Numbered from the stretch's first letter, positions 9,222 through 50,966 are shown. The stretch is 64,000 bases of DNA from Thermoplasmata archaeon (GCA_027314165.1 DAHVCH010000002.1:103716-167715), one strand, 5' to 3'. The notes: generated by a model from the letters alone, not told the origin. Program-made: numbers and translations.

Positions 9222-10271
9222 GTGAAGGTCCTCCTCCTCGGCAGCGGCGTGCTCCCCGTTCCGCCCCCGGGCTGGGGGGCGGTCGAACGGGCGATCGACG
9301 GGCTCGCCCGGGGCCTCCAGAGCTTGGATGTCGAGGTCCAGGTCGTTCAGAGGATCGGCAGCGGCCGACCCATCGACGAGTACCGGTTCGCCCTCGCCCT
9401 CCCGAAGATGCTGCGGCAGGAGCGGGGCGACATCGTGCATGCGTCCACGCCGGTGGTCGCGAACCGTCTCATCCTCGCCCACGTACCGTACGTCTACACC
9501 TCCCATTCCCGGCACTGGAACGGGGTCCGCGGACCAAGCCAGTCCTGGGGGTTCTATCTGGAGAAGAGGGCGTGCGCACGGGCCGAAAGGACGTTCGCGC
9601 TGACGCCAAAGGTCGCGGAGCTGATGGGTCGCGTGCACCCCACGACCCGAAGGGACAGGATCCGGGTCATCCCGAACGGGGTGGACCCCGCCTTCTTCCA
9701 CGCCGAGTGGAGCGTTCGGTTCGGGCATCAGGTCCTGGGCGTGGGAGCCGTCCACCCGCGCAAGCGCTGGCACCTGGCGGCACGCGCGGTCCGGGAGATC
9801 CCCGGAGCGACGCTCACGATCGTCGGGCCCGTCCAGGACCGGGCCTACGCCGACCTAGTGGTCCGCCTGGGGGGAGGGTCCGAGCGGGTGGTCATCGCCG
9901 GCGAGGTCACCGAGGCTGAGCTTCAGCGACGCTACGCCGCAAGCGACCTCCTCCTGCATCCCAGCGGGTCGGAGCTCCTGAGCATCACCGTTCTGGAGGC
10001 CATGGCCAGCTCCCTCCCAGTGGTGGGCACGACGGTGCTCGAGGAGGAGGTGCCGGCAGGGACCGCGGGGGTCCTCGTCGACGAGCGCCTTCCCATCGAC
10101 CAGAAGGTCGCTCAGTTCCGTGAGGCGGTCTCGGCGCTTCTCTCCGACGAGGGCCGGAGGAGGGCCATGGGCCAAGAGGGGCGACGCGTCATCGAGGAGC
10201 GGCACGCGTGGCCGAAGGTGGCCGAAGCTACGCTCGCGGTCTACCGCGAGCTGCTCACTCCCCCGCGTTGA
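9222..10271 (+). CDS. glycosyltransferase family 4 (GT-B fold)
   Basis: N-terminal GWGAVERAI and C-terminal HPSGSELLSITVLEAMASSLPVV (the E-x7-E region). GTG start at 9222. Confidence 0.85.
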   Translation: MKVLLLGSGVLPVPPPGWGAVERAIDGLARGLQSLDVEVQVVQRIGSGRPIDEYRFALALPKMLRQERGDIVHASTPVVANRLILAHVPYVYTSHSRHWNGVRGPSQSWGFYLEKRACARAERTFALTPKVAELMGRVHPTTRRDRIRVIPNGVDPAFFHAEWSVRFGHQVLGVGAVHPRKRWHLAARAVREIPGATLTIVGPVQDRAYADLVVRLGGGSERVVIAGEVTEAELQRRYAASDLLLHPSGSELLSITVLEAMASSLPVVGTTVLEEEVPAGTAGVLVDERLPIDQKVAQFREAVSALLSDEGRRRAMGQEGRRVIEERHAWPKVAEATLAVYRELLTPPR

Positions 10272-11061
10272 GCGGGGTCTCGTCCTCGACACGGATCCCA
10301 TCGGCCCCGATCGTCAGGGTGTGCTCTTCCGTGTCGTGCGGGGTCCCACGCATCCGCAGGATCTGGATAGTCCGCTTCATCATCGGACCGGACCACTCCT
10401 TTCGGAGCAGCACCTCTCCACGGCAGATGACCTGCTCGGGGGTCAGCTCGTGCGACGGGGGAGGGAGCGCGGTGATGAGCGTCGTCACCTCCTTCTCGGC
10501 CAGGAAGCGGAGCAAGGACTGGATCTCCGTCCGGTCCGTCTGCTGCTCCCCCGTGGCCCTCAGCGCAAAGTGGCGGACGGAGGTCATGGAGTCGATCACG
10601 AGACGGCGTACCGGAAGGGTCTCGAGCTGGCGCCGAAGCCGGAGGTAGATCGACTGCATGGTGATGTCCTCCGTCTGCGCGGTGGCGCGGCGCTGGTCCC
10701 CGAGCTCCTGCATCGAGCGGATCTCCTGCAGGCTCTTGATCTCCTGGACGCTCCCCAGCCGGCGGTAGGCGAGCTGGCCCGGGTTCGCGTCCAGGGTGTG
10801 GATCTTCGAGAGGTCCCACCCGAACGCCCGGACGTTCTCCATGATCTCGTGCGGAGGTTCGTCCACGGCCACGAGCAGCACGGGCTCGCCGTGCCGGATG
10901 CCCTCCATCAGGAACTGAAGGCCCATGAGCGTCCGACCGCTCCCGTTGGGGCCCGTGATGAGGTAGGGTCGGCCCGGGGGGTATCCTCCCTTGAGCATCC
11001 GATCGAGCCCGGGGATGCCCGTCGTGGCCCGACCATCCTGCCGTCCACGTCCTACGACCAT
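10255..11061 (-). CDS. KaiC/RecA-like ATPase domain protein with a non-canonical Walker A
   Basis: GIPGLDRMLKGGYPPGRPYLITGPNGSGRTLMGLQF and Walker B RRLVIDSMTS. The Walker A lysine is replaced by arginine (GSGRT). ATG at 11061. Confidence 0.85.
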   Translation of the reverse strand: MVVGRGRQDGRATTGIPGLDRMLKGGYPPGRPYLITGPNGSGRTLMGLQFLMEGIRHGEPVLLVAVDEPPHEIMENVRAFGWDLSKIHTLDANPGQLAYRRLGSVQEIKSLQEIRSMQELGDQRRATAQTEDITMQSIYLRLRRQLETLPVRRLVIDSMTSVRHFALRATGEQQTDRTEIQSLLRFLAEKEVTTLITALPPPSHELTPEQVICRGEVLLRKEWSGPMMKRTIQILRMRGTPHDTEEHTLTIGADGIRVEDETPLNAGE

Positions 11062-11085
11062 GTTCGATCTCCTTCCTCCCCCGCG

Positions 11086-14000
11086 CTAGTTCCCATCGCC
11101 TTCGCCCGCGGGAGAGGAGCTCTCCTCCGCGCCCGGTTCCGCGGGGTCCTCCGGGGCCTCTCCATCGTCCGCGGGGGGAGCGGGGGATTCCTCTCCCGTC
11201 GTCGGTTCGCCGGAGGATGAGGGCTCCGTCGCCGAGTCTGCGGGTGAGGACTTCGCAGAAGAGGGATCGTCGCCCGCCGTCCCCTCAGCGGCCTGTCCCT
11301 TTCTCCGTCGGCGACCTCCACCGGAGGCTCCCGCGCCCTTCTTCCGCCGTCCGCCGCGCTTCTTGGGAGCCTCCTCTTCCGCCGGGGCCCCCGCTTCGGC
11401 GGAGGAGGAGGAAGGAGAGGTGTCGAGGGGGGGTTCGCTCCCGGCCTCAGGGGCTGAAGGAGTCACCGATGCCGCGGCGGTCCCCTCCGGGGTCTGGGGG
11501 GACACCGCATCCGGCTTCGGCGTCGGAGCGGGGGCTGGCTCCGCTCGGCTCCCCTCGCTAGGGGACGGTGGCCTCGCAGGCTCGGGGGTCGACGGGGGAC
11601 CGGGCTGGGTCCGCTCAGCCCGTGCTTCCTCCGCGGGACGGGAGATCGGCCGCTCCGAGCTTGCGGCAGGGGCCACAGGCGCGGGTGGAGTGGTGTCAGC
11701 GGGCTCCGGCCCGCTCGAGGACGCGGGCGCGGAGGGCGGCGTGGGACTCTTCTCCGGGGGCGTCGCGGTGGGTGCCACGGGCGGTGGAAGGACATCGGGG
11801 GTCGCTGGGGGCCTGGCGGGTGCCTCAGAGGCTTCAGTGGATGGTGGCGCAGGAGGCGCGGGCGCCGGGTGCTCGGCCGCCTCCACCTGCGCGGGGGACG
11901 GGTGCGGCGCAGCGGTGGAAGGCGTAGCGACCGGGGCGCCTTGTGGACGCGTCGCCTCGCGGATGCCGGCGTAGGGCGCGGGGCGAGGGGGCGCTCCCGG
12001 AGGGGGTGATCCGATCCGGCCCTGCCCCACCGGCGCACCGATGCGGTTCGGGGCCGTCGGCGCGCTTGGCCCGAGATTTACGGGGGGCGATCCGGACGGG
12101 GGCATCCTCGACACGGACGGGGCTGTCCAGGAGCCCGGAAGCGCCCGGCCGCCCGTGGGGGTCGACGCGGAATACTCGGCGCCGGAGGGGCGCGGCGTGA
12201 GCGTTGCGCCCTGCGACGGCGGGGGCGCTGCTGGAGGGGGAGATGGGCCGGGACCTGGAGCTGGGTTGGAAGGAGGCGCTGCGGCCGGCGTCGGGCCCTT
12301 GGGGGTCGGAGCCAGGGTCGCAGAGGTGGTCCCTGCCGAGGAGGCGGCCGCTGCGCTCGTGGGCGCGGTGGACTGGGCCGTAGGGGAGGGCGCGGGGGAG
12401 GATGGTTGAGCCCTCGGGGTGGCCGACGTGGTAGGAGGGGTCGGAACCTTGGGCACTGGCGGCAACGGCGTCCACGAGGACGGCCTGGCCGGGGGCGCCG
12501 CGGGGGCTTGCCCCGAGGCGGGCGGCCTCGCAATCGGAACCCCTGACGTCTGGCCCAGAACGGGCGGTGGTGTCCCCGTTCTCGGAGGAGGGGACGCGGC
12601 GGTTGGCGATCCCGTCGGCGGGGAGCCCGGTCGCTGAGGCAGGGCGGCGGGCCCGACATTGGTCCGAGGGGGGTTCGGTGAGGTTGACGGTGGGGTCGAG
12701 TACCCGCCCGAGGGAGGGGGCAGATTGCCGCCCGGCCGGGTAGGAGGGGCCGTCGGGGGAGGGTGTGGTGCGGGGACCGCCCCTCCTCCCGGGGAGGCGG
12801 GCGCGAGAGCTGGTCCGGGAGCGGTCCGAGGAGGAGCGGTGGGCGAGCTCGGAGGTATCACCGGGGGGGGAAGGGGTCTCAGCACCGTCGGAGCGGCAGG
12901 AGGCCGCGGGGGCGGTGTCGCGGTCGGTGGAGGGGGAGGCGGCCGGGAAACGGCCACATTCCCCGGGGGCGGAGCCGGATTGGGGGGTGATGTTGGAGAC
13001 GGTCTCGAGGTCGACTCCGAAGAGATGGGCGCCGCAGTGACCGGCGCGCGGGGCCCCTCGGGAGCCGGAGCCGCGGGTGCCGGTGGGTGGAAGACTGGTG
13101 CGAGAGGAGGTTCGGATGAACGCTGCGCGACGGGAGCCGTGGCCGCGGTCGGCGCGGAGGGAGCGGTCCCCGGAGAGGAGGGCCCGACGTCGCCCGAAGG
13201 AGCTCCCCCAGCTCGCTCGCTCTCCGAGGTCGCTGCGGCTCCGGGAGCGCCAGCCATCGCTTGGATTCCCGGAAGATCAGCCGCGCCCGCAACGGCCGCC
13301 GCCCGTTGGAGCAGCGCGGCAGGGAGGTTCGCCGTGATCGAGGCGCTCTCCTTCTTGCCAAGCACGCCGACGAGCCGAGAGAGCAGCGGGAGGAGCGAGG
13401 CCGCGGACTCCCGCGTGGGCTGGGAGAGCTGCGGAGCTTGTGCCGTCGGCCGAGGCGCGGGGCTCGGCGGGGTGCTGGCGACCGCGGGCGCTGCTGCGGT
13501 GGCGGAGGCGATGGAGCCCACCGGCGCCCGTCCCAGCTGGCTCTCGACGTCGCGCTTCAAGGCGAGAGATGGCCAGCTCGGCGCCCCTCCCTTCGCCGCG
13601 AACTCCTGCGACACCTGGTAGCCCAGCACCAGGTGGTTCACCATCTGCCGGGCCTCGAGCAGCAGCCGCAGCGACTCGCGGGTCTGCATCCGGGACAGCG
13701 CCGCGTGCGCCTGCTGGACCAGCTCACGCACCATGTCCACGTCGACCCCGACGTCCAGGAGGTCCTGGACATCCTCCTGGATGGTCAGGATGGCGCGTCG
13801 GGCCTCGATCATGAGCTCCGTCTCGGAGGGCTGCTCGACCTCCTCGGGCTCCTCGGAGGGGACCGGGACGACGGTGTGGGTGTCCCGAGAAATGGCGACG
13901 GACGTGTCGACGTCCATCCCGTGGGCGGAAAGCCGGAAGGGGTGGAGCCGCGGGTCGTGGGGGCTCCCCCGGATCTTCTCGATCCCCACGGCCCGGACGA

Positions 14001-14673
14001 CGCGCCCGGAGATGTCCCACCGGAAGAGGTGCACCTCCCCCCGGGCCAGCAGCCGTTCCGCGGTGGGCCGGTCGGAGTCCGCGGTCTCCACCGTGAGCAG
14101 CGAGGTGATCTTGAGGTCGGAGAGGAACCGGAGGAACGCTTGCGCGCCCTGGGCCTCGTCGAACCCTTTCATGCAGAAGTACTGGAGCGCCGTCATGGAA
14201 TCGATGACGATCCGGCTGTAGAGCCGGCGGACCGTCTCCATCTTGAGCGTCTGCATGAGGGCGCTGAAGGTGATCTCGACGCTCGTGAACTCGCCCGTCT
14301 TGCGGATCTCCTTCGGCACGTCGCCCAGGCGCATCGCCGAGCGGACCGCCGCGATGTCCTTGAACGGGGTCTTCTCGTAGCGCATGATGTCGGGGATGGC
14401 GTCGAAGATCCACACCTTGTCCAGCCCGTCCCCGAGCCCCGCGAAGTCCTGCCGAAGCTCGTTCGGGGGCTCCTCGAGCGTGACGTACAGCACGTCCTCG
14501 CCCTGCCGGACCCCCCGGAGCAGGAACTCCAGGGCCATCGTCGTCTTCCCCGCCCCCGGCGGGCCGACGATGAGGTAGGGCCGCCCGGGGAGGAGCCCCC
14601 CGTGCAGCATACGGTCGAGCCCGTCCACTCCCGTCGGTATCTTGATGTGGGGTCCGAGGAAAGCCCGCTGCAT
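11086..14673 (-). CDS. KaiC/RecA-like ATPase with a very long Pro/Ala/Ser/Thr-rich low-complexity C-terminal region
   Basis: The N-terminus GVDGLDRMLHGGLLPGRPYLIVGPPGAGKTTMALEF with Walker B RIVIDSMTAL forms a KaiC-like domain, followed by a helical segment. Roughly 800 aa of P/A/S/T-rich sequence then end in a basic patch (KKRGGRRKKG...GGGRRRRKG) and an acidic tail. Internal ATG at 14673 preferred over the ORF-track start at 14763. Confidence 0.8.
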   Translation of the reverse strand: MQRAFLGPHIKIPTGVDGLDRMLHGGLLPGRPYLIVGPPGAGKTTMALEFLLRGVRQGEDVLYVTLEEPPNELRQDFAGLGDGLDKVWIFDAIPDIMRYEKTPFKDIAAVRSAMRLGDVPKEIRKTGEFTSVEITFSALMQTLKMETVRRLYSRIVIDSMTALQYFCMKGFDEAQGAQAFLRFLSDLKITSLLTVETADSDRPTAERLLARGEVHLFRWDISGRVVRAVGIEKIRGSPHDPRLHPFRLSAHGMDVDTSVAISRDTHTVVPVPSEEPEEVEQPSETELMIEARRAILTIQEDVQDLLDVGVDVDMVRELVQQAHAALSRMQTRESLRLLLEARQMVNHLVLGYQVSQEFAAKGGAPSWPSLALKRDVESQLGRAPVGSIASATAAAPAVASTPPSPAPRPTAQAPQLSQPTRESAASLLPLLSRLVGVLGKKESASITANLPAALLQRAAAVAGAADLPGIQAMAGAPGAAATSESERAGGAPSGDVGPSSPGTAPSAPTAATAPVAQRSSEPPLAPVFHPPAPAAPAPEGPRAPVTAAPISSESTSRPSPTSPPNPAPPPGNVAVSRPPPPPPTATPPPRPPAAPTVLRPLPPPVIPPSSPTAPPRTAPGPALAPASPGGGAVPAPHPPPTAPPTRPGGNLPPPSGGYSTPPSTSPNPPRTNVGPAALPQRPGSPPTGSPTAASPPPRTGTPPPVLGQTSGVPIARPPASGQAPAAPPARPSSWTPLPPVPKVPTPPTTSATPRAQPSSPAPSPTAQSTAPTSAAAASSAGTTSATLAPTPKGPTPAAAPPSNPAPGPGPSPPPAAPPPSQGATLTPRPSGAEYSASTPTGGRALPGSWTAPSVSRMPPSGSPPVNLGPSAPTAPNRIGAPVGQGRIGSPPPGAPPRPAPYAGIREATRPQGAPVATPSTAAPHPSPAQVEAAEHPAPAPPAPPSTEASEAPARPPATPDVLPPPVAPTATPPEKSPTPPSAPASSSGPEPADTTPPAPVAPAASSERPISRPAEEARAERTQPGPPSTPEPARPPSPSEGSRAEPAPAPTPKPDAVSPQTPEGTAAASVTPSAPEAGSEPPLDTSPSSSSAEAGAPAEEEAPKKRGGRRKKGAGASGGGRRRRKGQAAEGTAGDDPSSAKSSPADSATEPSSSGEPTTGEESPAPPADDGEAPEDPAEPGAEESSSPAGEGDGN

Positions 14674-14908
14674 CCGACTCCGACCCTGCTCCGCTACGGG
14701 TGACCCCTGTCGGTCCAATGGGTCGGGCAGAACGCCACACCACTGGCCCGCACGCTCGCCCACCGTAGGCAGGCACAGTAGGGCTTGTAAGCCTACCGCC
14801 TAGCTTCTCTCGATAAGGACCACGGTGGCCTCGACCGCGGGGCCCCCGGAACCGGGTTCGTCCTCAGGCATATCTAGCAGGTGCCGCTCGGCCCCTCTCG
14901 TGGCAGAA

Positions 14909-41441: not shown

Positions 41442-42137
41442 TCAGCCGCTGAGGAGCGAGTACCAGGTCAGGGGGCCCACGAGCGCCAGGAAGATCGCGA
41501 GAAGGACCGCAATGACCCCGAGCTCCACCCAGGCGCGGGGGTCCCGGATCCGCTTGTCGTGCCGGCCGAGCGCAAGGAGGAAGAGCCCCCCCGCGAAGAC
41601 GACCAAGAGGCCCTCGACGACGGGGGAGAGCGTCCAGCGCGAGAACACGACGGGGGCCAGGAGCGGGAGGCTCCCTCCGTCCACCGCGAGGTGGGTGAGG
41701 ACCGCGCCGCCGACGCCGAAGGCCATCCAGCCTCCTTTCCAGGCAAGGGCGACCACGACGGCCAGAGCCACGAAGAGAAGGGTGTGGGAGGGCCGGTAGA
41801 CCGCGGCCGGGACGACCAGCCCGAAGACGTGGTCGACGTCCAGGCCAAGCGAGAGGGCAGGGGCCAGCAGGTAGAGGCGCCGGTCGCGTGCGGGAATGGC
41901 CACGAGCAGGCCGGTGGCGAGGTGCCACACCGCGTCGATCGCGTCGGCTTGGCCCGGATGGGACGCGGCGTGGGACTGGACGTGGACCGCCCCGGCGAGG
42001 AGGTTCACCAGCGCTGCCCACCCCAGGTCGAGCAGGAGGAAGACCGCCACGAAGGGGAGCAAGGGACGGCCGAGCCGCCAGACCTCCCGTGCGAAGCGGG
42101 TGGGGAAGCTCTCTCGGTCCACGGGCGCGGCGGTCAT
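41442..42137 (-). CDS. polytopic membrane protein, possibly a membrane-bound metal-dependent hydrolase (YdjM/DUF457-like)
   Basis: About 6 hydrophobic helices with conserved-looking His/Asp positions (LGLDVDHVFG, THLAVDGG). ATG at 42137 preferred over TTG at 42170. Confidence 0.5.
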   Translation of the reverse strand: MTAAPVDRESFPTRFAREVWRLGRPLLPFVAVFLLLDLGWAALVNLLAGAVHVQSHAASHPGQADAIDAVWHLATGLLVAIPARDRRLYLLAPALSLGLDVDHVFGLVVPAAVYRPSHTLLFVALAVVVALAWKGGWMAFGVGGAVLTHLAVDGGSLPLLAPVVFSRWTLSPVVEGLLVVFAGGLFLLALGRHDKRIRDPRAWVELGVIAVLLAIFLALVGPLTWYSLLSG

Positions 42138-42272
42138 TCGTTCCGACCGACAGCGCGAACCGGCGCTCAAGGCGCTTTCCGGTTCCCCCGCGACAGGGGT
42201 CGGACGAGGGCGAGAGCCCGGCCGCCATGCCCAGGGGACAGCGCGGTCCCCCGCCCGCGTATCCTAGGGGGG

Positions 42273-45212
42273 CTAACGGATGCGCTCGAGCGAGAAGCTC
42301 CCGAGCTGGATCGACCTCTGCGTGAAGCGGTAGTCGACCCACTGCCGGGACTGGACGTCACCGAGCCCCAGGATCTGCAACTGGGTCTTGCCCCGCTCGG
42401 TCTGGAACTGGACCGCGCCGTCCATCTGCGAGACGATTCCCTGGACCTGCTGCTCGCTGTGCATCCCGCGGTCGACGCTGTAGGCGCCGAGGCTCCCCTT
42501 CGGGCGCAGGATCCCCAGGACGTTCTGGACGAAGGCCGCCGCACCCTTCTCGTCGGTCTGCGTGATGCAGGCGGAGAGCGTCAGGAAGGCCACACGGAAG
42601 CCGGTCTTGGCCTTCTCCATGTCCGCGGCGTGCCGGGAGATCGCCTGCAGGATCCCGACCATGTCGGCCGGGCCCTTGACCGTGCTCCCGCGCGCGGCCC
42701 TCGAGTCCGTCCCGGCGACCCCGGCCGGGTTGGAGGCGTCGACCCATACGAGCCGGCCCGCGCCCTCGTACTCCATCAGCGACGGGACGAGCACGCCCAG
42801 CTCCTTGGCGGTCTCCGAAGGCGATCGGCTCGTGGTGACGATGATGGCCCCCTCGCCCTTCCTCAGCCCTTCGGCCAGGAAGGCGTAGATCGCCACTTCC
42901 TTGCCCACGAAGGACGGGCCCACGAAGCCCACCTGGGCGCGTTCGGGGAAGCCCCCGAGCAGCAGGTCGTCCAGACGTGGCGTGCCCGTCGACACCTTCC
43001 CCGGCCGCGTCACCGAAGGCGTGGGGCCGATCGAGAGCATGCCCCCGGCCTCCTCGGCAGGGGCGGCCGCGGCGCCCTGGCGCTCGCGCTCGTACTGCTG
43101 GGCGCGGAGCTTCTGCTCGCGGTCTCCCAGCTGGCGCTCACGGAGCTCCAGCGCCTTCTCACGGTCCCGTAGCGCCTGGGAGATCGCCGTGTCCGCCTCG
43201 GCGCGGGACGGTGCGAGCCGCGCGGTGGTCTCCTCCAGACGGGCGCTGCGGACCCGGAGGTCCGCGAGCTGGGCCTCCACGGCGCGCTTCTGGGCGGAGG
43301 CCTCCTGCGTCATCCGTTCGGACTCCTCCCGGCGCTGCTGGACCTCCCGCTCGCGCTCCTGGAGCTTCTGCTCACGCAGGGTCGCGCTTGTCTCGCGGTC
43401 CTTCAGCTGGTTCAGCATGAGGCTCGATTGGCTCTCGACGAGCGTGCTCTTCTTCGTCGCGTCGAAGTACTTCCGGATCTCCTCTTCGTGACGCTTCGTC
43501 GCGCCCTTGAGGAGGTCGAGCTCGACCTCGTACTGCTTCTCCTTGGCCGAGAGCGCCGCCTCGCGGTTGGCGACCCCCTTCTCACGCTCGAGGATCGTGG
43601 AGGCCACCTGCTGGAGCTCGAGTCGGCGGCGTTCGACGGCCTGCTCCTTCTGGCCGGCCGCGTTGACGCGGTCGGAGACCTCGGCGCGTTGCGCCTCGAT
43701 CGCGGCCTCCCTCCGGGAGATCTCGGCGTCCTTCGCCTGGACGCGCGAACGGGCGTCGGGCGGCAGGACCAAGGAGGACTCCTTCGAGCGGACCTCGGCC
43801 TCCTTCGCGGTGGCCGCCGCGAAGCGCACCTCGGCCTCGTGCAAACGTCCCTGCGCGGTCTGGTCCACGATGCGGGCCTGGGCCTCCTGCCGGGCGACCT
43901 CCGCCTGGCGGTTCTGGACCTCGAGCTCCTTCTGGCGGACCCCCTGCTCCCGGTCGAGCAGGTTCTTTTCGCGGTCGCCGAGCCGCTGGAACCCGGTCTG
44001 CATCTCGTGCTCCCGGGCGGCGATCTGAGCGTTCCTTTCCTTGAGCGAGGCCTCGGAAGCGGTCACCTCGGCGGCCCGGGGGAGCAGCGCCTGCTCGCGG
44101 GCCCCCACCTCGTCGCCCTTCCCCCGCAGGTGCTTGTCCAGGGTCTCGAGCTCCTGGCGGCGGTCCTCGAGGAACCGGGCCCGCTCGACGAGCGTCCCTT
44201 CCTGGGCCTCGACGTCCGCCTCGCGTCGGGAGAGCGCTTCCTCCCGGAACATCGCCGCCTCGTTGCGGGTGGAGAGCTCCTGGGAGAGGGCGAAGAGCTT
44301 CTCGTGGCTGCCGGCGACGACCTCGCGCTCCTGGGCACGGGTGGCGCTCGCCATCAGGTGGAGCTGCGCGCCGCTCGCCGTGTAGAGGAACGCGGCGAAG
44401 CTGAAGGTGATCGAGAGCGCCAGGTTGAAGGCGCCCCCTCGAGACCCGAGCGCCCCCACGTTGTTGATGGGGGCCAGGGAGAAGGAGAGGGGGATGGCCA
44501 GGACCGGCGGCAGGATGGCCATGCCGACGCTGAAGATCTTCCGGTAGGGCCAGCCGCGCCAGGTGGTCCCCAGGGAGACCATCCCCAGGCTGAGGGCGAT
44601 CAGCACGAGGATGTAGATCACTCCCGAGAGGGAGACCAGCAGGTCGGGCTTCTTCCCGGTGAAATGGAAGGCGTAGATCACGGTCAGGGCGATCGAGAGG
44701 CCGAGCGCGGCCACGGTGACCGCGAAGTGGTCCTCGAACGGCCAGAACCCGTAGGTGTCGTACTTCTCGATGAACACCGCCGCAGAGAGGAAGAGCGAAG
44801 CGGCCAGAGGGAGCGCGAGGGGCAGCTGGTTGGTGATGACGGAGTCCAGGAAGGCCCCGACCTGACCCACCGTCGAGAGGGCGGAGGACCCGACGAAGAG
44901 GGCGATCGCGGAGTCCACGATGAGCAGGAGGCCGACAATGAATCCGAAGGCGAGGGCCTGGCGTCCCAGGCGGAGCTGGAAGAGGGCCTCGGCCCGGGCC
45001 CGCCCCATGTCCACCACCGTGGGAACGGTCGAGCGGCCGCGCCGCCCGCTCCTCGGCGGGGCGGTCTCGCGGGGCGCTGCCCCCGAGCCGTCGGCGGGGG
45101 AGCCGTCCGTCCCGGCGCCGGAGGCGGAGTCTGCCGAGGACCCCCAGGAGCCCTCCACGGGCCCGGACGGGGCCGCGGGAAGCCTTCGTGAGGTGGTCTT
45201 CCGCTTCGCCAT
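42273..45212 (-). CDS. multidomain protein: polytopic membrane domain + long coiled coil + C-terminal KaiC/RecA-like ATPase domain
   Basis: Residues about 75-330 contain 8-9 TM helices. Residues about 340-720 are heptad-rich E/R/A/L/Q sequence. The C-terminus GTPRLDDLLLGGFPERAQVGFVGPSFVGKEVAIYAFLAEG...WVDASNP is a KaiC-like domain with Walker A GxxxxGKE. ATG at 45212. Confidence 0.8.
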   Translation of the reverse strand: MAKRKTTSRRLPAAPSGPVEGSWGSSADSASGAGTDGSPADGSGAAPRETAPPRSGRRGRSTVPTVVDMGRARAEALFQLRLGRQALAFGFIVGLLLIVDSAIALFVGSSALSTVGQVGAFLDSVITNQLPLALPLAASLFLSAAVFIEKYDTYGFWPFEDHFAVTVAALGLSIALTVIYAFHFTGKKPDLLVSLSGVIYILVLIALSLGMVSLGTTWRGWPYRKIFSVGMAILPPVLAIPLSFSLAPINNVGALGSRGGAFNLALSITFSFAAFLYTASGAQLHLMASATRAQEREVVAGSHEKLFALSQELSTRNEAAMFREEALSRREADVEAQEGTLVERARFLEDRRQELETLDKHLRGKGDEVGAREQALLPRAAEVTASEASLKERNAQIAAREHEMQTGFQRLGDREKNLLDREQGVRQKELEVQNRQAEVARQEAQARIVDQTAQGRLHEAEVRFAAATAKEAEVRSKESSLVLPPDARSRVQAKDAEISRREAAIEAQRAEVSDRVNAAGQKEQAVERRRLELQQVASTILEREKGVANREAALSAKEKQYEVELDLLKGATKRHEEEIRKYFDATKKSTLVESQSSLMLNQLKDRETSATLREQKLQEREREVQQRREESERMTQEASAQKRAVEAQLADLRVRSARLEETTARLAPSRAEADTAISQALRDREKALELRERQLGDREQKLRAQQYERERQGAAAAPAEEAGGMLSIGPTPSVTRPGKVSTGTPRLDDLLLGGFPERAQVGFVGPSFVGKEVAIYAFLAEGLRKGEGAIIVTTSRSPSETAKELGVLVPSLMEYEGAGRLVWVDASNPAGVAGTDSRAARGSTVKGPADMVGILQAISRHAADMEKAKTGFRVAFLTLSACITQTDEKGAAAFVQNVLGILRPKGSLGAYSVDRGMHSEQQVQGIVSQMDGAVQFQTERGKTQLQILGLGDVQSRQWVDYRFTQRSIQLGSFSLERIR

Positions 45213-45514
45213 TCGTCTCTTGGGACCTATCCGCCCAGGTGGACCGTAAGATGACGCTACTTAAGGGAGTGAGGATGCAAGCGTTCCCAGGGCGCGCAGC
45301 GCGACACCCGAAGGTTCTCGAGAGATCGCGACCACAGGCTGCCGCGCACCGCGCGCATGGCGCGGCCTCGCGACATCCTTGAGCTAGAATGGTCTCGGGA
45401 GTATTTGGAGCCCTCGACCTCACACGGGTCGAACGCGACCCGGGCTCGGACGCGGTCGACGGGGCCCGCGTGCCGGTGCCCTCTCCTCCCTCCCGTGGTC
45501 GGGGGGGCCCCGGT

Positions 45515-46807
45515 TCAGGGGCCCTTCAGGGGTCTGCCACAGGCGACACAGGAGGCGAACGACATCGGGTTCGGCCTGCGACAGTTCGGGCAGAGGACGA
45601 GCCCGGGCGGAAGGCCGTTGGACGGCCCCGGTGCCCCTCCCGAGGGGGGGGTCCCCGCACCGCTCCCTGCGCGGGCGGTCGCCGCGGCGTGGGCGGCCAT
45701 GGCGGCCTTCATCCTGGCCTCGAACATCGCACGGGCCTCCGGAGGCATCCTCGCGAGCGCCTCGGGAGGGATCCCCGGGGGCATCCCGGGCGGCATGCCT
45801 CCCACGGCGCCGGGAGCCGACCCTTGGGGGCCGGCCGCGAACGACGGTGGCATCCCTCCGTATCCCCTCGCGTCGAAGGCGATGGACCGCACGCCGAGGC
45901 CCGCCTCCGCGAGCCAGGAACGCAGGAGGGTCTCGAGCTTGCCGTGGTCCCCTAGGGTGGGAGCGTCCAACCCCTGGAGCTTCGTCTGAACGACGCTGCT
46001 GAGCAGCTGCTGGGGCTGGGGAGCGGAGCTCTCCAGGACCTTCACCGCGGGGGTCGCGGCGAGCTTCGAGGGCTCCGCGATCCAGAACCGGACCGTGGCG
46101 GAGAACATCGGCGGAGGGACGGGGGGAGGACGCGCGGAGTGCTGGACCTTGCCCTCGAGGTCGCCCAGGTAGCAGAACAGCGGCGTCGCCGCGAGGCTGT
46201 ACCGCGCGGTGCCCGGAGCCGGGCGGCGCGAGGCCGCGGCCGCCTTCGGAGCGGTCGTCGCGGAGAGGACATGCTCTCCCGCCGGGAAGACTTCCAGCGG
46301 CTGGCCGTTGCTGTCGACAAGGATGGCGGCCGCCCCTTGGGGCACTTGGAGCCGTGACCCCGCCGCCAGGGCCGTCACGGGCAGACGCGCGACCCACTTC
46401 GAAGGGTCGAGCGCGGGGCCCGCAAGGACCGGGTTGACCGCGAGGAAGACCTCCCCAGGGTCGCGATACGTTCCCTCCGGCAGGTGGGTCTCCAGCCAGC
46501 GCGGGTCATCCAGAGTGGCGTCGCTGTCCGAGAGGATATCCTCCATCCTCTCCTTCCACGCGCCGAGGAGCTGGGCCCGGGTCGCCGGGTACCTCTCGAA
46601 CCCCGGGCTCTCGGACCCCTGCCCGCCGAGGAAGTCCGAGACCCAGTCGGGCGCGCCGACGACCCCCATCCCCCACCACCAGTCGAGGCAGGGGTGTCCG
46701 CACGTCGGACACTGCGCGGGGCCCTGGAGCGAGCAGGCGCAGCCCGACCCCTTCGCCGAGCAGACCGGGTGGCGGCATTCGGGATCGGAGGCGCAGTGTT
46801 CGCACAT
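45515..46807 (-). CDS. Cys-rich protein with C-terminal zinc ribbon, possibly an SPFH/band-7-like core (COG4260-like architecture)
   Basis: The first 40 aa hold 11 Cys (CEHC..C....C.....CAC......CPTC..PC). The central region has RLQVPQGAAAILVDSNGQPLEVFPAGEHVL. A GMPPGMPPGIPP repeat follows, and the C-terminus carries CPNC...CVACG. Confidence 0.6.
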   Translation of the reverse strand: MCEHCASDPECRHPVCSAKGSGCACSLQGPAQCPTCGHPCLDWWWGMGVVGAPDWVSDFLGGQGSESPGFERYPATRAQLLGAWKERMEDILSDSDATLDDPRWLETHLPEGTYRDPGEVFLAVNPVLAGPALDPSKWVARLPVTALAAGSRLQVPQGAAAILVDSNGQPLEVFPAGEHVLSATTAPKAAAASRRPAPGTARYSLAATPLFCYLGDLEGKVQHSARPPPVPPPMFSATVRFWIAEPSKLAATPAVKVLESSAPQPQQLLSSVVQTKLQGLDAPTLGDHGKLETLLRSWLAEAGLGVRSIAFDARGYGGMPPSFAAGPQGSAPGAVGGMPPGMPPGIPPEALARMPPEARAMFEARMKAAMAAHAAATARAGSGAGTPPSGGAPGPSNGLPPGLVLCPNCRRPNPMSFASCVACGRPLKGP

Positions 46808-46958: not shown

Positions 46959-49900
46959 TCACTCGGAGTACCGGATCGCTTCCGCCGGAGGGATCCGCGA
47001 CGCGCGGAAGGAGGGCATCCCGGTCGCGACCAGCGTCAGCGCGTAGCTCGTCCCAAGGACGAAGGCGAGGTTCGCCCAAGGGATCGAGAACGCGAAGAAC
47101 CCTCCCACCGCCTCGTTCAGGTTGTAGGCCAGGACGAGCCCCATCACCGCTCCGATCCCGATGCCCATGAGGGCCAGGAAGGAGTACTCCGTGAGGAACA
47201 CGGCCAGCACCTGCGAGCGCCGGAACCCCACCGCCCGGATGACCCCGATCTGCGTCCTCCGCTCCACCACCGCACGAAGGGCCAGGATCCCCAGCGACGT
47301 GATCCCGACGATGAGCCCCAGGGCCACGAAGACCTCGAGGAGGTCGATGAACGCGTTGGTGAACTGCAGCGTGGTCGACAGGATCTGCGCGAAATCGAAG
47401 ACCTCAAGGTTGTCGGCGAAGAAGTGGGTCTGGAAGGTCTGGATCACCGTCCGCGAGTCGACCCCCGGAGCTCCCGTCAGAAGGAAAAGCTGCTGGGTGG
47501 AGAAATGGAAGGTGCCGGTCAGCAGCGCAGGGCTCACCAGCACGGCCTGGAGGACCTGCTCGGAGAGGACCCCGATGACCTCCACGGTGGACGTTCCTCC
47601 GAAGAGCCCCTCGATCGTGACCCGGTCACCGGGCCGGACCCCCGCGTGACCGGAGCCTCCTTGGATGGCCGCGGCGAGCGCGTTCGTCTGGAAGCTCCCG
47701 TCCACGACGGCGACGCTGGTGTTGGTCTCGAGCGCCTGCCAGATCTGCGAGGGCGACCAACCGGGCAGGGTGGCGGAGAAACTGAACTGGTTCGTCGAGT
47801 AGAAGTCCTGCCAGGCCGGGGTCCCGTCCTGCGGGGTGGGGGCGGCGGCGAGCCCGTAGCCGAAGCAGGCCCGGGAGGAGGAGCACGATTGGGACGGGAG
47901 CGGATTGACCATGCCCATCCCCGAGTAGAACGAGACAAGCGTCGAGACCTCCCCTCGCAGTGTCGAGTTGTTCTGGACCTGGGAGGCGAGGTCGGTGATC
48001 GGCGTGGGGGAGACGCCGTAGAACTGGTACCCCCCCGACTCGGTATGGATGGAGTTCGACACCCCGGAGGAGATCCCGTTCCCTATGGCGGCAATGGCCG
48101 TGATCGTGAAGAGGACCATGGCGAAGATGCTGATGGTCATGGCCGAACGGAACCGTCGTTGGGACGGGTAGGAGAACGCGAGACGGACGACCGGGAGGTT
48201 CCTCGAACCGCTCCGGGAGAGCCTCGTGAGCGCCTGGACGATGAGGTCGGAGTTGAACACGTAGAGGATGACCGCGGCGAGGATCAGGAAGACCCCCATC
48301 TGGAAGAACACGAAGATCGTCCCCGAGTGCGTGCCCGGGAACAGTTCGTTCCGAAGCTGGAGGTCGCCCCAGAACACCAGGAGGCCGAGCGCGGAGGCGG
48401 AGAACGTCCAGCGCAGCGGCACCCGGTAGGCGGCGATGAGCCCGACCGCGAGGATGAGGAGGCTCGCTCCCAGGAATCCCACGTCGATGTCCGTCCCCGA
48501 CTTGTGTCCCACCTCGTACAGGGCCGCGCCCAGGAGGAGCAGCAGGACCCCGGAGCCGAGCAGGGCACGGCGGGAGCGCTCCTTGTGGATCAACTCCGGC
48601 TGGCTGCGGATCGCGCGGACGATGTTCATCCGGCTGACGTAGGCCGAGGTCACGCTCACGGTGACGAGCGTGAGCAGGAAACCGGCGGAGTAGGCGAGGG
48701 CGAGGCTCCTGGGGGTGAAGGTGAAGGAGTCGACGATGGCGGAGGCGGCGACCCCGCCGCCGCTCCCGAACAGGCTCGCGAAGAGCTGGATGATGCCCCA
48801 TCCGACCAGGACCCCTAGGAACGTCCCGAGGAGGGCGGAACCCGCGGAGTAGGCGAGTCCCTCGAAGTAGTAGGCCCGGATGAGCTGGCCTCGACGCATC
48901 CCGACGGCCCGCGCCACCCCCATCTCGCCGCGCCGCTCCTCCGCGAGCATCGCGAAGATGCCCACGATCAGGACGCAGCCCGCCCCGATCGAGAAGAGCC
49001 CCAGGACGAGGAAGAGCTGGGTCAAGGACTGGGCGTTGGCCTCTGCCGTAAGGAGGTCGGAGAGGAGAACGGAATGGACCTCGAGGCCTCTCGGCGGAGT
49101 TCCCCCGGCCCTCTGGTCCGCGAGGACGGAGGCGCTCTTCGAGCTGTTGAGCGGCCCCCAGACCTGGTTCGTATGGGCGGTCCCTCCCACGAGCCCTCCC
49201 GTGTTCGTCACGGCGATGTAGTTGATCGGCTGGGTGGCGTAGGCGGAGCAAATCCCTCCGCACAGCGCCTGAGCGTCCGAGAGCGAGAGGAAGACGTCGC
49301 CCATGCCGGAGTCCTGGAACCCGCCGCGCGTGTCGGACTTGACCAGGGAGAGCACCGAGAAGTTGACCGGGACCTGCGCCGCTCCGCTCAGGGAGACCTT
49401 GTCGCCCACCTGCGCGGAGAGCTCGGTCGCCGCCGCCGCGTTGAGCAGGATCTTCCCTGGAGAGGGACCGCTCACGGGGGCGCCGGTCGTGGAGGTGAAG
49501 CTCCCGAGGTTCGAGCTCGCCCAGGCGTCGACCCCGATGAGCGTGAGGCCAGGCTGCGCGACGTTCTGGGTCCGGTCGTAGGCCGACCCCGTCGTGATGA
49601 GCATCGGGGTGAGCCCCTGGACGTTAGGGACGCGCGCGGCCGTCGTGTTCATGGACGAGAAGATGGCCATGTCGAACGTGCTGTAGCTGACCGAGGTCCC
49701 CCCGACCCCTCCCTGCGGGGCGGGGGCGTAGACCGCCTCGTCCACGGCCCCGTCCGCGATGTAGGTGAAGTGGACCGAGAGGTTGTCCACCGTGTCGCCG
49801 ATCACCAGGCTCGAGGAGATGATCGCGCTGCCGATCAGCAGCCCGAAGAGGAGCACCAGCGTCCGGGTCCTCGCGCGGGTGACGTTCCGAAGGCCGATCT

Positions 49901-50219
49901 TCGCGATGACCCGGTCCTTGAGCCCCAGGGCGAGGGAGAAGAGCGCGACGGCGATGACCATCAGGACGAGGAGCCCCACCAGGGGGTCGCCCACCCCGAG
50001 CGCGGTGAGCCCCGCGCTCGCCTGGGAAAGGCCCTGGGGCGTCCCCAGCCACAAGGAGGTCCCGATGAGAAGGAGGCCGAGCGTGACGCCGGTCAACAGG
50101 ACCTGGTTCGACAGGCGCTGTCGCCGGAGCTTCTCCGAGGCGGAGGAGCCCGGCAGGTCGGTCAGAGGAGCCGGTCGAGAGGCCGGCCCCTTCGATCTAC
50201 TCCCCGATGATCCGGCCAT
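46959..50219 (-). CDS. ABC transporter permease, duplicated FtsX/MacB-type (about 10 TM with large extracytoplasmic domains)
   Basis: Two FtsX-domain signatures ([22 protein letters not shown]; [21 protein letters not shown]), each after a large Ser/Thr/Gly-rich loop. ATG at 50219. Confidence 0.9.
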
Positions 50220-50880
50220 CCCGCATCCTCATCGTCCGGTCGCAGCCCGCGGCGACGGCCGGGTCGTGCGTGACCACGACGAAGGTCTGATGGTGCTCCC
50301 GGTTCAGGTCCCGCAAGAGCTCCATCACGGCGTGACTGTTCTCCTCGTCGAGGTTGCCGGTGGGCTCGTCGGCCCACACGATCGCCGGACGGTTCGCGAG
50401 CGCGCGCGCGAGCGTGACCCGCTGCTGCTCCCCACCGGAGAGCGCGCTGGGCCGATGGAGCTCCCGGCCTTTGAGCCCGAGCTCTTTCAGCCAGAGCACC
50501 GCCCGTTGCCGCGCCTCCTTGGGCGGGACGCCGGCCACGAGCAGGGGGAGCTCGACGTTCTCCTGCGCGGTCAGGACCGGCAGCAGGTTGTAGGCCTGGA
50601 AGACGAACCCCATCCGGAGCGCCCGGTACTCGCTGCGGGCGTTGTCGGAGAGGTTCTTGAGGTCCCGACCTTCGATCCGGATGGTCCCCCGGCTGATGTC
50701 GTCCAGGCCGGAGAAGCAGTTGAGGAACGTGGTCTTCCCGCAGCCGGACGGGCCCATGACCGCGACCATCTCGCCCTTCCGGATGTTGACATCGATCCCC
50801 TTGAGCGCGGGGACCTCGCCGGCCTCGGAGGCGTAGATCTTCCAGACCTTCTGGCCCTCGACAACGACGGGAGCGGGCAT
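50197..50880 (-). CDS. ABC transporter ATP-binding protein (MacB/LolD-like)
   Basis: Walker [11 protein letters not shown]-loop, signature LSGGEQQRV, Walker [14 protein letters not shown]-loop VTHD. ATG at 50880. It overlaps the permease start by 23 nt. Confidence 0.95.
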
Positions 50881-50966
50881 TCGAGCGAGCGAGCAGGGTG
50901 GGTGGGGCGGATAAGCTTGGCCGGCGCGCGTCGTGGGCCGGCCCCCGACCGCTCGGGGAGCGACGC

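Follow-up and report, generated by a model that had tools for sequence, protein, structure and literature searches.

The window analysed here, a 64,000-nucleotide stretch of DNA from a Thermoplasmata archaeon (GCA_027314165.1 DAHVCH010000002.1:103716-167715) with an overall G+C content of ~70%, encodes on its minus strand (42273..45212) a 979-aa fusion protein in which an N-terminal membrane module and a long helical stalk precede a KaiC/RecA-fold head that has lost the catalytic residues of this fold. The fusion protein is a real, conserved and uncharacterised protein of uncultured soil Thermoplasmata archaea, and we consider it moderately likely that it serves as a non-enzymatic, membrane-anchored adaptor or scaffold of the inactivated KaiC (iKaiC) kind. 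An open reading frame (ORF) of this length with membrane, coiled-coil and KaiC-like parts had been proposed in an initial annotation of the window; it was confirmed, and is organized as follows.

42273..45212, minus strand: the whole fusion gene, a 979-aa ORF comprising N-tail, six-transmembrane (six-TM) module, helical stalk, inactivated KaiC head and invariant C-terminal peptide.
45015..45212, minus strand: N-tail, residues 1-66; cytoplasmic, variable, basic, and rich in Ser, Gly and Pro.
44325..45014, minus strand: six-TM membrane module, residues 67-296, with both N- and C-terminus inside, based on an AlphaFold2 (AF2) model and on the distribution of Lys plus Arg (K+R).
43002..44324, minus strand: helical stalk, residues 297-737; rich in E, R, A, L and Q, possibly an antiparallel hairpin turning near G520.
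42309..43001, minus strand: iKaiC head, residues 738-968, assigned by Pfam PF06745, a family profile against KaiC, and AF2 with Foldseek.
42897..42920, minus strand: remodelled P-loop GPSFVGKE, residues 765-772, with an invariant Lys-Glu pair.
42273..42308, minus strand: C-terminal peptide (L)GSFSLERIR, residues 969-979 plus the stop codon; invariant, and unpacked in the monomer model.

The assignment of the head to the KaiC/RecA fold is supported by several comparisons. Pfam PF06745 matches residues 740-830 with 35.9 bits (cut-off 26.6), a phmmer search against the Protein Data Bank (PDB) matches KaiC, PH0284, PH0186 and SSO2452, and a profile of the head family matches PDB KaiC with E=3e-27; with NCBIfam, the fusion protein gives matches to archaeal KaiC families at sub-threshold level only. 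An AF2 model based on alignment A2, comprised of the last 251 residues (729-979) of 52 sequences, has a predicted local distance difference test (pLDDT) score of 91, and the Foldseek matches to this model are led by KaiC (E=5e-14), PH0284 (template modelling score, TM-score, of 0.81 on the target) and FlaH (TM-score of 0.77). Pfam, the family profile and the AF2/Foldseek comparison thus agree with the C-terminal KaiC/RecA-like domain of the initial annotation, and speak against a domain outside the RecA/KaiC group. Homology of the head to DUF835 was also considered and rejected (hhalign probability of 0.2%). The head is the third PF06745 match of the window and, as had been noticed earlier, the second with a deviant P-loop, since the frame at 10258..11085 also lacks GxxxxGK[ST].

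Three elements of the catalytic machinery are replaced in the head. The Walker A consensus GxxxxGK[ST] is absent: the loop reads GPSFVGKE, as recorded in the initial annotation, and the Glu at the Ser/Thr position is found in 51/51 sequences. An alignment of 32 homologues shows no variation at G765, G770, K771 and E772, and the Lys and Glu are present in 51/51 members of a second set. The further replacements go beyond this earlier observation and concern the catalytic Glu pair after strand 2, where KaiC 'vtfEEsp' aligns with 'VTTSRSP' (Arg in 43/51), and the Walker B Asp, where KaiC 'RvviDS' aligns with 'RVAFLT' and the position is occupied by Leu, Phe or Met. Because the substitutions at Walker A, at the Glu pair and at Walker B recur throughout the family, the head is, on sequence grounds, a catalytically dead member of the KaiC/RecA fold, predicted to be unable to hydrolyse ATP by the RecA/KaiC mechanism. 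The head is followed by a short tail whose G, F, L, E, R and I are shared by 51/51 sequences (consensus GSF[AS]LERIR), yet which the AF2 monomer places with low confidence (pLDDT of ~60 at model residues 241-250, and below 50 for the final six); this combination suggests a peptide that docks in trans.

The stalk is ~440 aa long in this protein (residues 297-737), residues 300-720 being rich in Glu, Ala, Arg, Leu and Gln, and its length is held within narrow limits among 83 homologues (median of 422 aa, range 380-469, standard deviation 23). A periodogram peaks at 3.5 residues, with a power of z=2.2 above shuffled sequences. The long heptad-rich coiled coil read from the sequence at the outset is therefore upheld in its helical nature and its 3.5-residue signal, and corrected in its length, which had been given as 380 aa. 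Gly or Pro occupies the G520 column, at the midpoint of the stalk, in 67% of the sequences; the two arms on either side measure 222 and 202 aa and their lengths are correlated (r=0.54), a first half that is ~20 aa longer being accompanied by a longer second half. The stalk probably folds back as an antiparallel hairpin, and the co-variation in arm length may stem from a single clade.

The membrane module was modelled by AF2 (residues 66-300) with a pLDDT of 87.7 as six long helices, and hydropathy analysis places five to six hydrophobic stretches within residues 82-249. The mean number of K+R is 9.3 in the N-terminal segment (residues 1-88), ~2 at the end of TM2 and in loop 2, 1.8 in loop 4 and 1.6 after TM6, against 0.2-0.3 in each of the outer loops, which are variable and have lengths of ~10, 10 and 4 aa. 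This asymmetry and the tiny outer loops place both ends of the module in the cytoplasm and leave almost nothing exposed outside. The polytopic membrane N-terminus of the initial annotation is retained with six helices by model, hydropathy and K+R distribution, rather than the 8-9 originally counted. The invariant residues R84, K150, H162, F163 and W218 belong to the consensus motifs KWExYQLWPWExHF and LTWxGWxxRK and lie on the cytoplasmic side, and the mean column identity of the module is 47%; the N-tail in front of it ranges from 0 to 69 aa among family members. Neither Pfam nor the PDB, whether by sequence or by fold, provides a match to the module, the best Foldseek matches (E of 0.07, TM-score below 0.45) being generic helix bundles and G protein-coupled receptors (GPCRs), and among 1.84 billion representative proteins only 86 clusters match it. 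It occurs in three architectures. The main one carries stalk and iKaiC head. In a stalk-less form, a Pro-rich linker connects the six-TM module to a related head in which the P-loop Gly-Lys is gone and the invariant tail is missing (P0124, P0130 and L092 1264..3327, minus strand). In the third, one to five copies of the module are fused to OppC-type ABC permeases of Thermoplasmata (P0090, P0126, P0137 and L091 1444..3648, plus strand).

The fusion is widely conserved in the class. Full-length homologues numbered 52 in a protein search; they measure 870-1058 aa and come without exception from metagenome-assembled genomes (MAGs) labelled Thermoplasmata or 'Euryarchaeota', and a scan of genome contigs found 490 related stretches in species-representative genomes, all titled as Thermoplasmata or Methanobacteriota MAGs. 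When a profile of the membrane module alone (alignment A3) was compared with 401 genomes of the class, 135 matched, as a rule with one copy per genome and in frames of ~900-1000 aa. The matches fall in eight families (f1, 73/87; f6, 22/25; f16, 5/5; f24, 7/9; f26, 3/3; f27, 20/20; f29, 2/2; f30, 2/2), and the same census found none in f8 (0/65), f20 (0/58) and f17 (0/25). The membrane form is also carried by one family from another class of the phylum (5/5). The gene is thus single-copy and stably inherited in eight families of the class and in one family of another class. The initial annotation had named uniqueness to this contig, with a mis-join revealed by read mapping, as a possible objection to the fusion; the full-length frame is conserved in well over 100 genomes, which excludes an assembly mis-join without read mapping.

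The fusion protein was compared with known systems built on the same fold. Single-domain archaeal KaiC-like proteins (PH0284/2dr3, PH0186/2zts, SSO2452/2w0m; PF06745, COG0467) have the head fold in common with it (TM-score of 0.81 to 2dr3), including the N-terminal G-x-x-x-LD-x-x-L-GG motif and the KaiC-type strand order. They are free proteins of 230-250 aa in which GxxxxGK[ST], the catalytic Glu and the Walker B Asp are intact, whereas in the fusion head all three are replaced, the head ends a 730-aa membrane-plus-stalk extension, and an invariant tail peptide is added. A circadian KaiC is not indicated, given a single KaiC-like domain and 19 bits against a cut-off of 408 for the NCBIfam circadian KaiC family. 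Nor is the protein of the SMC/Rad50 type, as its head is RecA-type and present at the C-terminus only, the N-terminus being a membrane module. In the crenarchaeal archaellum motor (PMC5019145; structure 4yds), ArlH/FlaH and ArlX/FlaX likewise combine a KaiC-fold, non-conventional ATPase with a membrane coiled-coil scaffold; there, however, ArlH and FlaX are encoded as separate proteins in an archaellum operon, with a single TM helix in FlaX, whereas the fusion is one chain with six. NCBIfam gave no ArlH match in the fusion gene, and no arl genes lie nearby.

Closest in kind are the inactivated KaiC domains, an established concept in archaeal signalling (PMC5847659). Such domains (DUF835, MEDS and divergent PF06745) are assigned to KaiC signalling hubs proposed for archaea by Makarova, Galperin and Koonin (2017, as cited in PMC5847659). 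The fusion head is likewise KaiC-derived without catalytic residues, and its host genome is rich in KaiC paralogues. The iKaiC architectures described so far are fusions to REC, PAS and similar signalling domains, in contrast to the six-TM module and 420-aa stalk found here. The searchable literature yielded no architecture of a six-TM module, a ~420-aa stalk and an iKaiC domain. No signal-transduction part (REC, HK, PAS or active KaiC) was found in the protein or among the conserved neighbours at 80 loci, whose ORFs were clustered de novo with a filter on third-position G+C content (GC3).

The head and tail recur in a second protein of the same genome. When the head profile was run against the whole genome, exactly two strong matches emerged, the gene in the window and a soluble paralogue of 862 aa, both ending in GSFSL[ED][RH]IR.

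G000 C33:86424-89018 (L007 8422..11010), minus strand: soluble paralogue, with the same head and tail and a soluble N-terminus.

From the stalk to the C-terminus the two proteins can be aligned with 27% identity (E=1e-41), and a maximum-likelihood tree unites both head types in a single clade (100/100) that excludes four other KaiC-like proteins of the genome; a single split between the head types is compatible with this tree and unsupported (37/100), the backbone being unresolved. Membrane and soluble forms thus belong to the same head subfamily and share the tail and a long helical stalk, while the soluble form differs in a DNA-binding-type N-terminus, in retaining an acidic catalytic residue and often a Glu at Walker B, and in a much wider distribution in the class. 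Its heads carry GK[DE] in 29/30 cases, T[DE]K at the catalytic position in most, and Glu, Arg or Gln at the Walker B position, and its tail reads GSFSL[DE]HI[RK]. In relatives its N-terminal part holds a RadA-type helix-hairpin-helix (HhH) region and 'WLxG' repeats together with, in many of them, CxxC pairs, and this N-terminus matches the HhH regions of RadA, Hel308 and UvrC; the paralogue of the present genome has no HhH Pfam match. NCBIfam scores of the paralogue for ArlH/FlaH are far below the cut-offs, and the sole Rad50 match, at 14.8 bits vs a cut-off of 1000, again concerns the paralogue and reflects cross-matching of its coiled coil. Among 148 high-quality genomes of the class, 113 have the soluble form. 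It occurs in all families with the membrane form that were sampled (f1, 19/22; f6, 12/12; f16, 4/4; f24, 6/6; f27, 8/8; f29, 1/1; f30, 2/2), the sample taking in every such family of the class but f26.

Other KaiC-like genes lie near these two. The paralogue is located just downstream of a gene for a 451-aa DUF835 (iKaiC-type) protein (L007 11720..13075, minus strand) and of two unnamed ORFs on the same strand; the paralogue and the DUF835 gene may constitute an operon of pseudo-KaiC parts. Within the window, 11089..14799 (minus strand) encodes a canonical KaiC-like ATPase (GPPGAGKT, TLEE, VIDS) followed by ~900 further residues of Pro/Ala/Ser-rich low complexity, and directly downstream of it lies the 276-aa KaiC-like frame at 10258..11085 (minus strand; PF06745, 159 bits); the two look like a live/dead KaiC pair. 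The genome encodes about ten active KaiC-like ATPases.

On the adaptor or scaffold reading, the head and the tail peptide would be protein-protein docking elements, and docking may give homo-oligomers, mixed assemblies with the soluble paralogue, or contacts with active KaiC-like ATPases. The stalk hairpin would bring the head close to the conserved surface that the membrane module turns to the cytoplasm, an arrangement with which the stalk-less variant is consistent. The fusion protein would then bring partners to the membrane or hold them there, or pass on the state of the membrane as a signal to the archaeal KaiC network. The fixed losses of the Ser/Thr, the Glu pair and the Asp, together with the loss of Gly-Lys in the stalk-less variant, were counted in favour of a non-enzymatic role. 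The dead KaiC-fold head, the long stalk and the conserved membrane module also fit the 'membrane-anchored signalling or scaffolding machine' suggested in the initial annotation, apart from its pairing with a second gene (see below). Several points weigh against this reading. The invariant P-loop Lys-Glu could still bind a nucleotide or another anion, making the head a ligand-regulated switch or the site of unusual chemistry. The heptad periodicity of the stalk is modest (z=2.2), and the hairpin was deduced solely from the midpoint Gly/Pro and the compensated length change of one clade. Finally, no conserved operon partner is present in the 80 loci, where the neighbourhood is variable, gene order is conserved in a clade-specific manner only, and no pathway is indicated.

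As a less probable alternative, the protein might be a sensor of membrane state, its six-TM module responding to lipid, tension or a transported solute within the bilayer or at its inner face, with the signal running along the stalk, as in chemoreceptors, to an iKaiC head that modulates active KaiC-like ATPases. The conservation of the module is far above the need of a plain anchor, the module is mobile, occurring also inside the OppC-type permeases, and iKaiC domains are known as signalling modules (PMC5847659). The short and variable outer loops leave, however, no extracellular ligand site, and no MCPsignal, HAMP, HisKA or REC domain is found in or beside the gene. A gene for a class I S-adenosylmethionine (SAM) methyltransferase (Methyltransf_25/11) lies directly upstream on the same strand in 35 of the 80 loci, at a distance of 15-45 bp in 30 of these 35 (an example is L053 1655..2578, plus strand), and the enzyme could tune the Glu/Gln-rich stalk of such a sensor. 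It is, however, a generic methyltransferase rather than CheR, its orthologue in this genome is located on another contig (G000 C55, about 96134-97048), and the linkage is limited to related loci and may represent inherited gene order.

It is improbable that the membrane form and the soluble paralogue, with its Zn ribbon, RadA-type HhH and stalk, co-assemble through heads and tails into pseudo-ATPase rings and tether the nucleoid or other DNA to the cell membrane, with the stalks fixing the distance between them. Such a tether would agree with the presence of exactly two proteins with this head and tail in the genome, with the grouping of both heads in one clade, with the HhH-like and often CxxC-containing N-terminus of the paralogue in relatives, and with its presence in all sampled membrane-form families. 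The paralogue is, however, near-universal in the class, so that co-occurrence weighs little; the two genes are never adjacent, and the paralogue of this genome lacks an HhH Pfam match.

Still more doubtful is a head that has remained an enzyme or nucleotide switch, in which Glu772 would coordinate Mg2+ or water and support slow ATP or GTP turnover, or autophosphorylation as in ArlH and KaiC. The P-loop Gly and Lys are invariant, and FlaH/ArlH, a structural neighbour of the head, binds ATP without a canonical Walker B according to the abstract of PMC5019145. Against this stand the replacement of all three acidic or hydroxyl catalytic positions (T to E, EE to SR, and D to L) and the complete loss of Gly-Lys in the stalk-less relatives.

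The initial annotation had described the fusion gene together with the next gene upstream, and this gene and the one following the fusion gene are described below.

45515..46807, minus strand: Cys-rich gene, 430 aa; nine-Cys N-terminal cluster, weak DUF2795-like and SPFH-like core, Pro-rich linker and C-terminal Zn ribbon.
41442..42170, minus strand: 242-aa polytopic membrane protein, 102 bp downstream of the fusion gene; conserved His/Asp motifs.

The Cys-rich ORF, on the same strand as the fusion gene and with its GGMPPGMPPGIPP repeat and C-terminal CPNC...CVAC, is as originally reported, except that the first 40 residues hold 9 Cys and not 11. Its family has six homologues, in which the nine N-terminal and four C-terminal Cys are conserved, C406, C409, C420 and C423 being invariant. 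For the Pfam families Zn_Ribbon_1/DZR the protein of the window reaches 16.4 bits (cut-off of 25), and its homologue P0062 passes with 43-45 bits. Support for the suggested SPFH/band-7-like core is marginal: the protein itself has no Pfam SPFH match at E<=1, its homologue P0061 marginally passes Band_7_1 (24.4 vs a cut-off of 24), P0060 reaches 12-15 bits, and the family profile matches the PH stomatin with E=0.2.

That the fusion gene and this Cys-cluster, Zn-ribbon gene form a functional two-gene module is highly unlikely and, as a conserved pair, was rejected: the two are adjacent on the same strand here and in a 98%-identical same-genus genome, but they are separated by a gap of 302 bp, this adjacency accounts for 1/80 related loci, a 75%-identical relative has a 159-aa gene on the opposite strand in its place, and the other homologues occur in unrelated contexts, near Kelch/PKD giant proteins, a small DUF835 gene or a double-zinc-ribbon gene. 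The Cys-rich gene is an unrelated neighbour and not a conserved partner of the fusion. Its family is found beside giant Kelch/PKD surface-protein genes in two other genomes (L088 and L089). Further upstream in the window, 46959..50219 (minus strand) encodes a duplicated FtsX/MacB-type permease of 1086 aa, with its ABC ATPase at ~50200..50900 (minus strand); this pair is syntenic in the 75%-identical relative, without a Cys-rich gene between it and the fusion gene.

The 242-aa protein encoded downstream carries the motifs WH, DxDH, SH and H..DGG and has no Pfam or NCBIfam match; presumably, its His/Asp motifs are akin to those of YdjM-type membrane hydrolases. De novo clustering recovers its gene as a recurrent neighbour, and tblastn locates it ~90-370 bp downstream on the same strand in 10/80 loci and ~2.2 kb downstream in one more. 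Other recurrent neighbours are a DUF998 gene at position -2 and a 2-hydroxyacid dehydrogenase gene at +1 on the opposite strand. As most of the loci are from one family, inherited gene order may account for these recurrent neighbours. PADLOC found no defence-system match for the fusion gene, its neighbours or the paralogue.

Archaeal genomes contain many KaiC-like proteins, for which an archaeon-specific signalling network that includes inactivated copies has been proposed, largely without tests so far. The iKaiC domain is of a kind already known, and the family is therefore of specialist interest. It represents a clear case of a dead KaiC domain under strong selection, visible in the fixed replacement residues, the invariant tail, the conserved stalk length and the single-copy inheritance across several families, and it joins this domain to a membrane module not seen before. 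That membrane and soluble forms occur as a pair points to an interaction open to direct testing, and a tether between them, if true, would be an archaeal membrane-to-chromosome linker made of pseudo-ATPase rings. The fusion family thereby offers a concrete system in which to address what pseudo-KaiC domains bind, and how uncultured soil Thermoplasmata organize signals or structures at their membrane.

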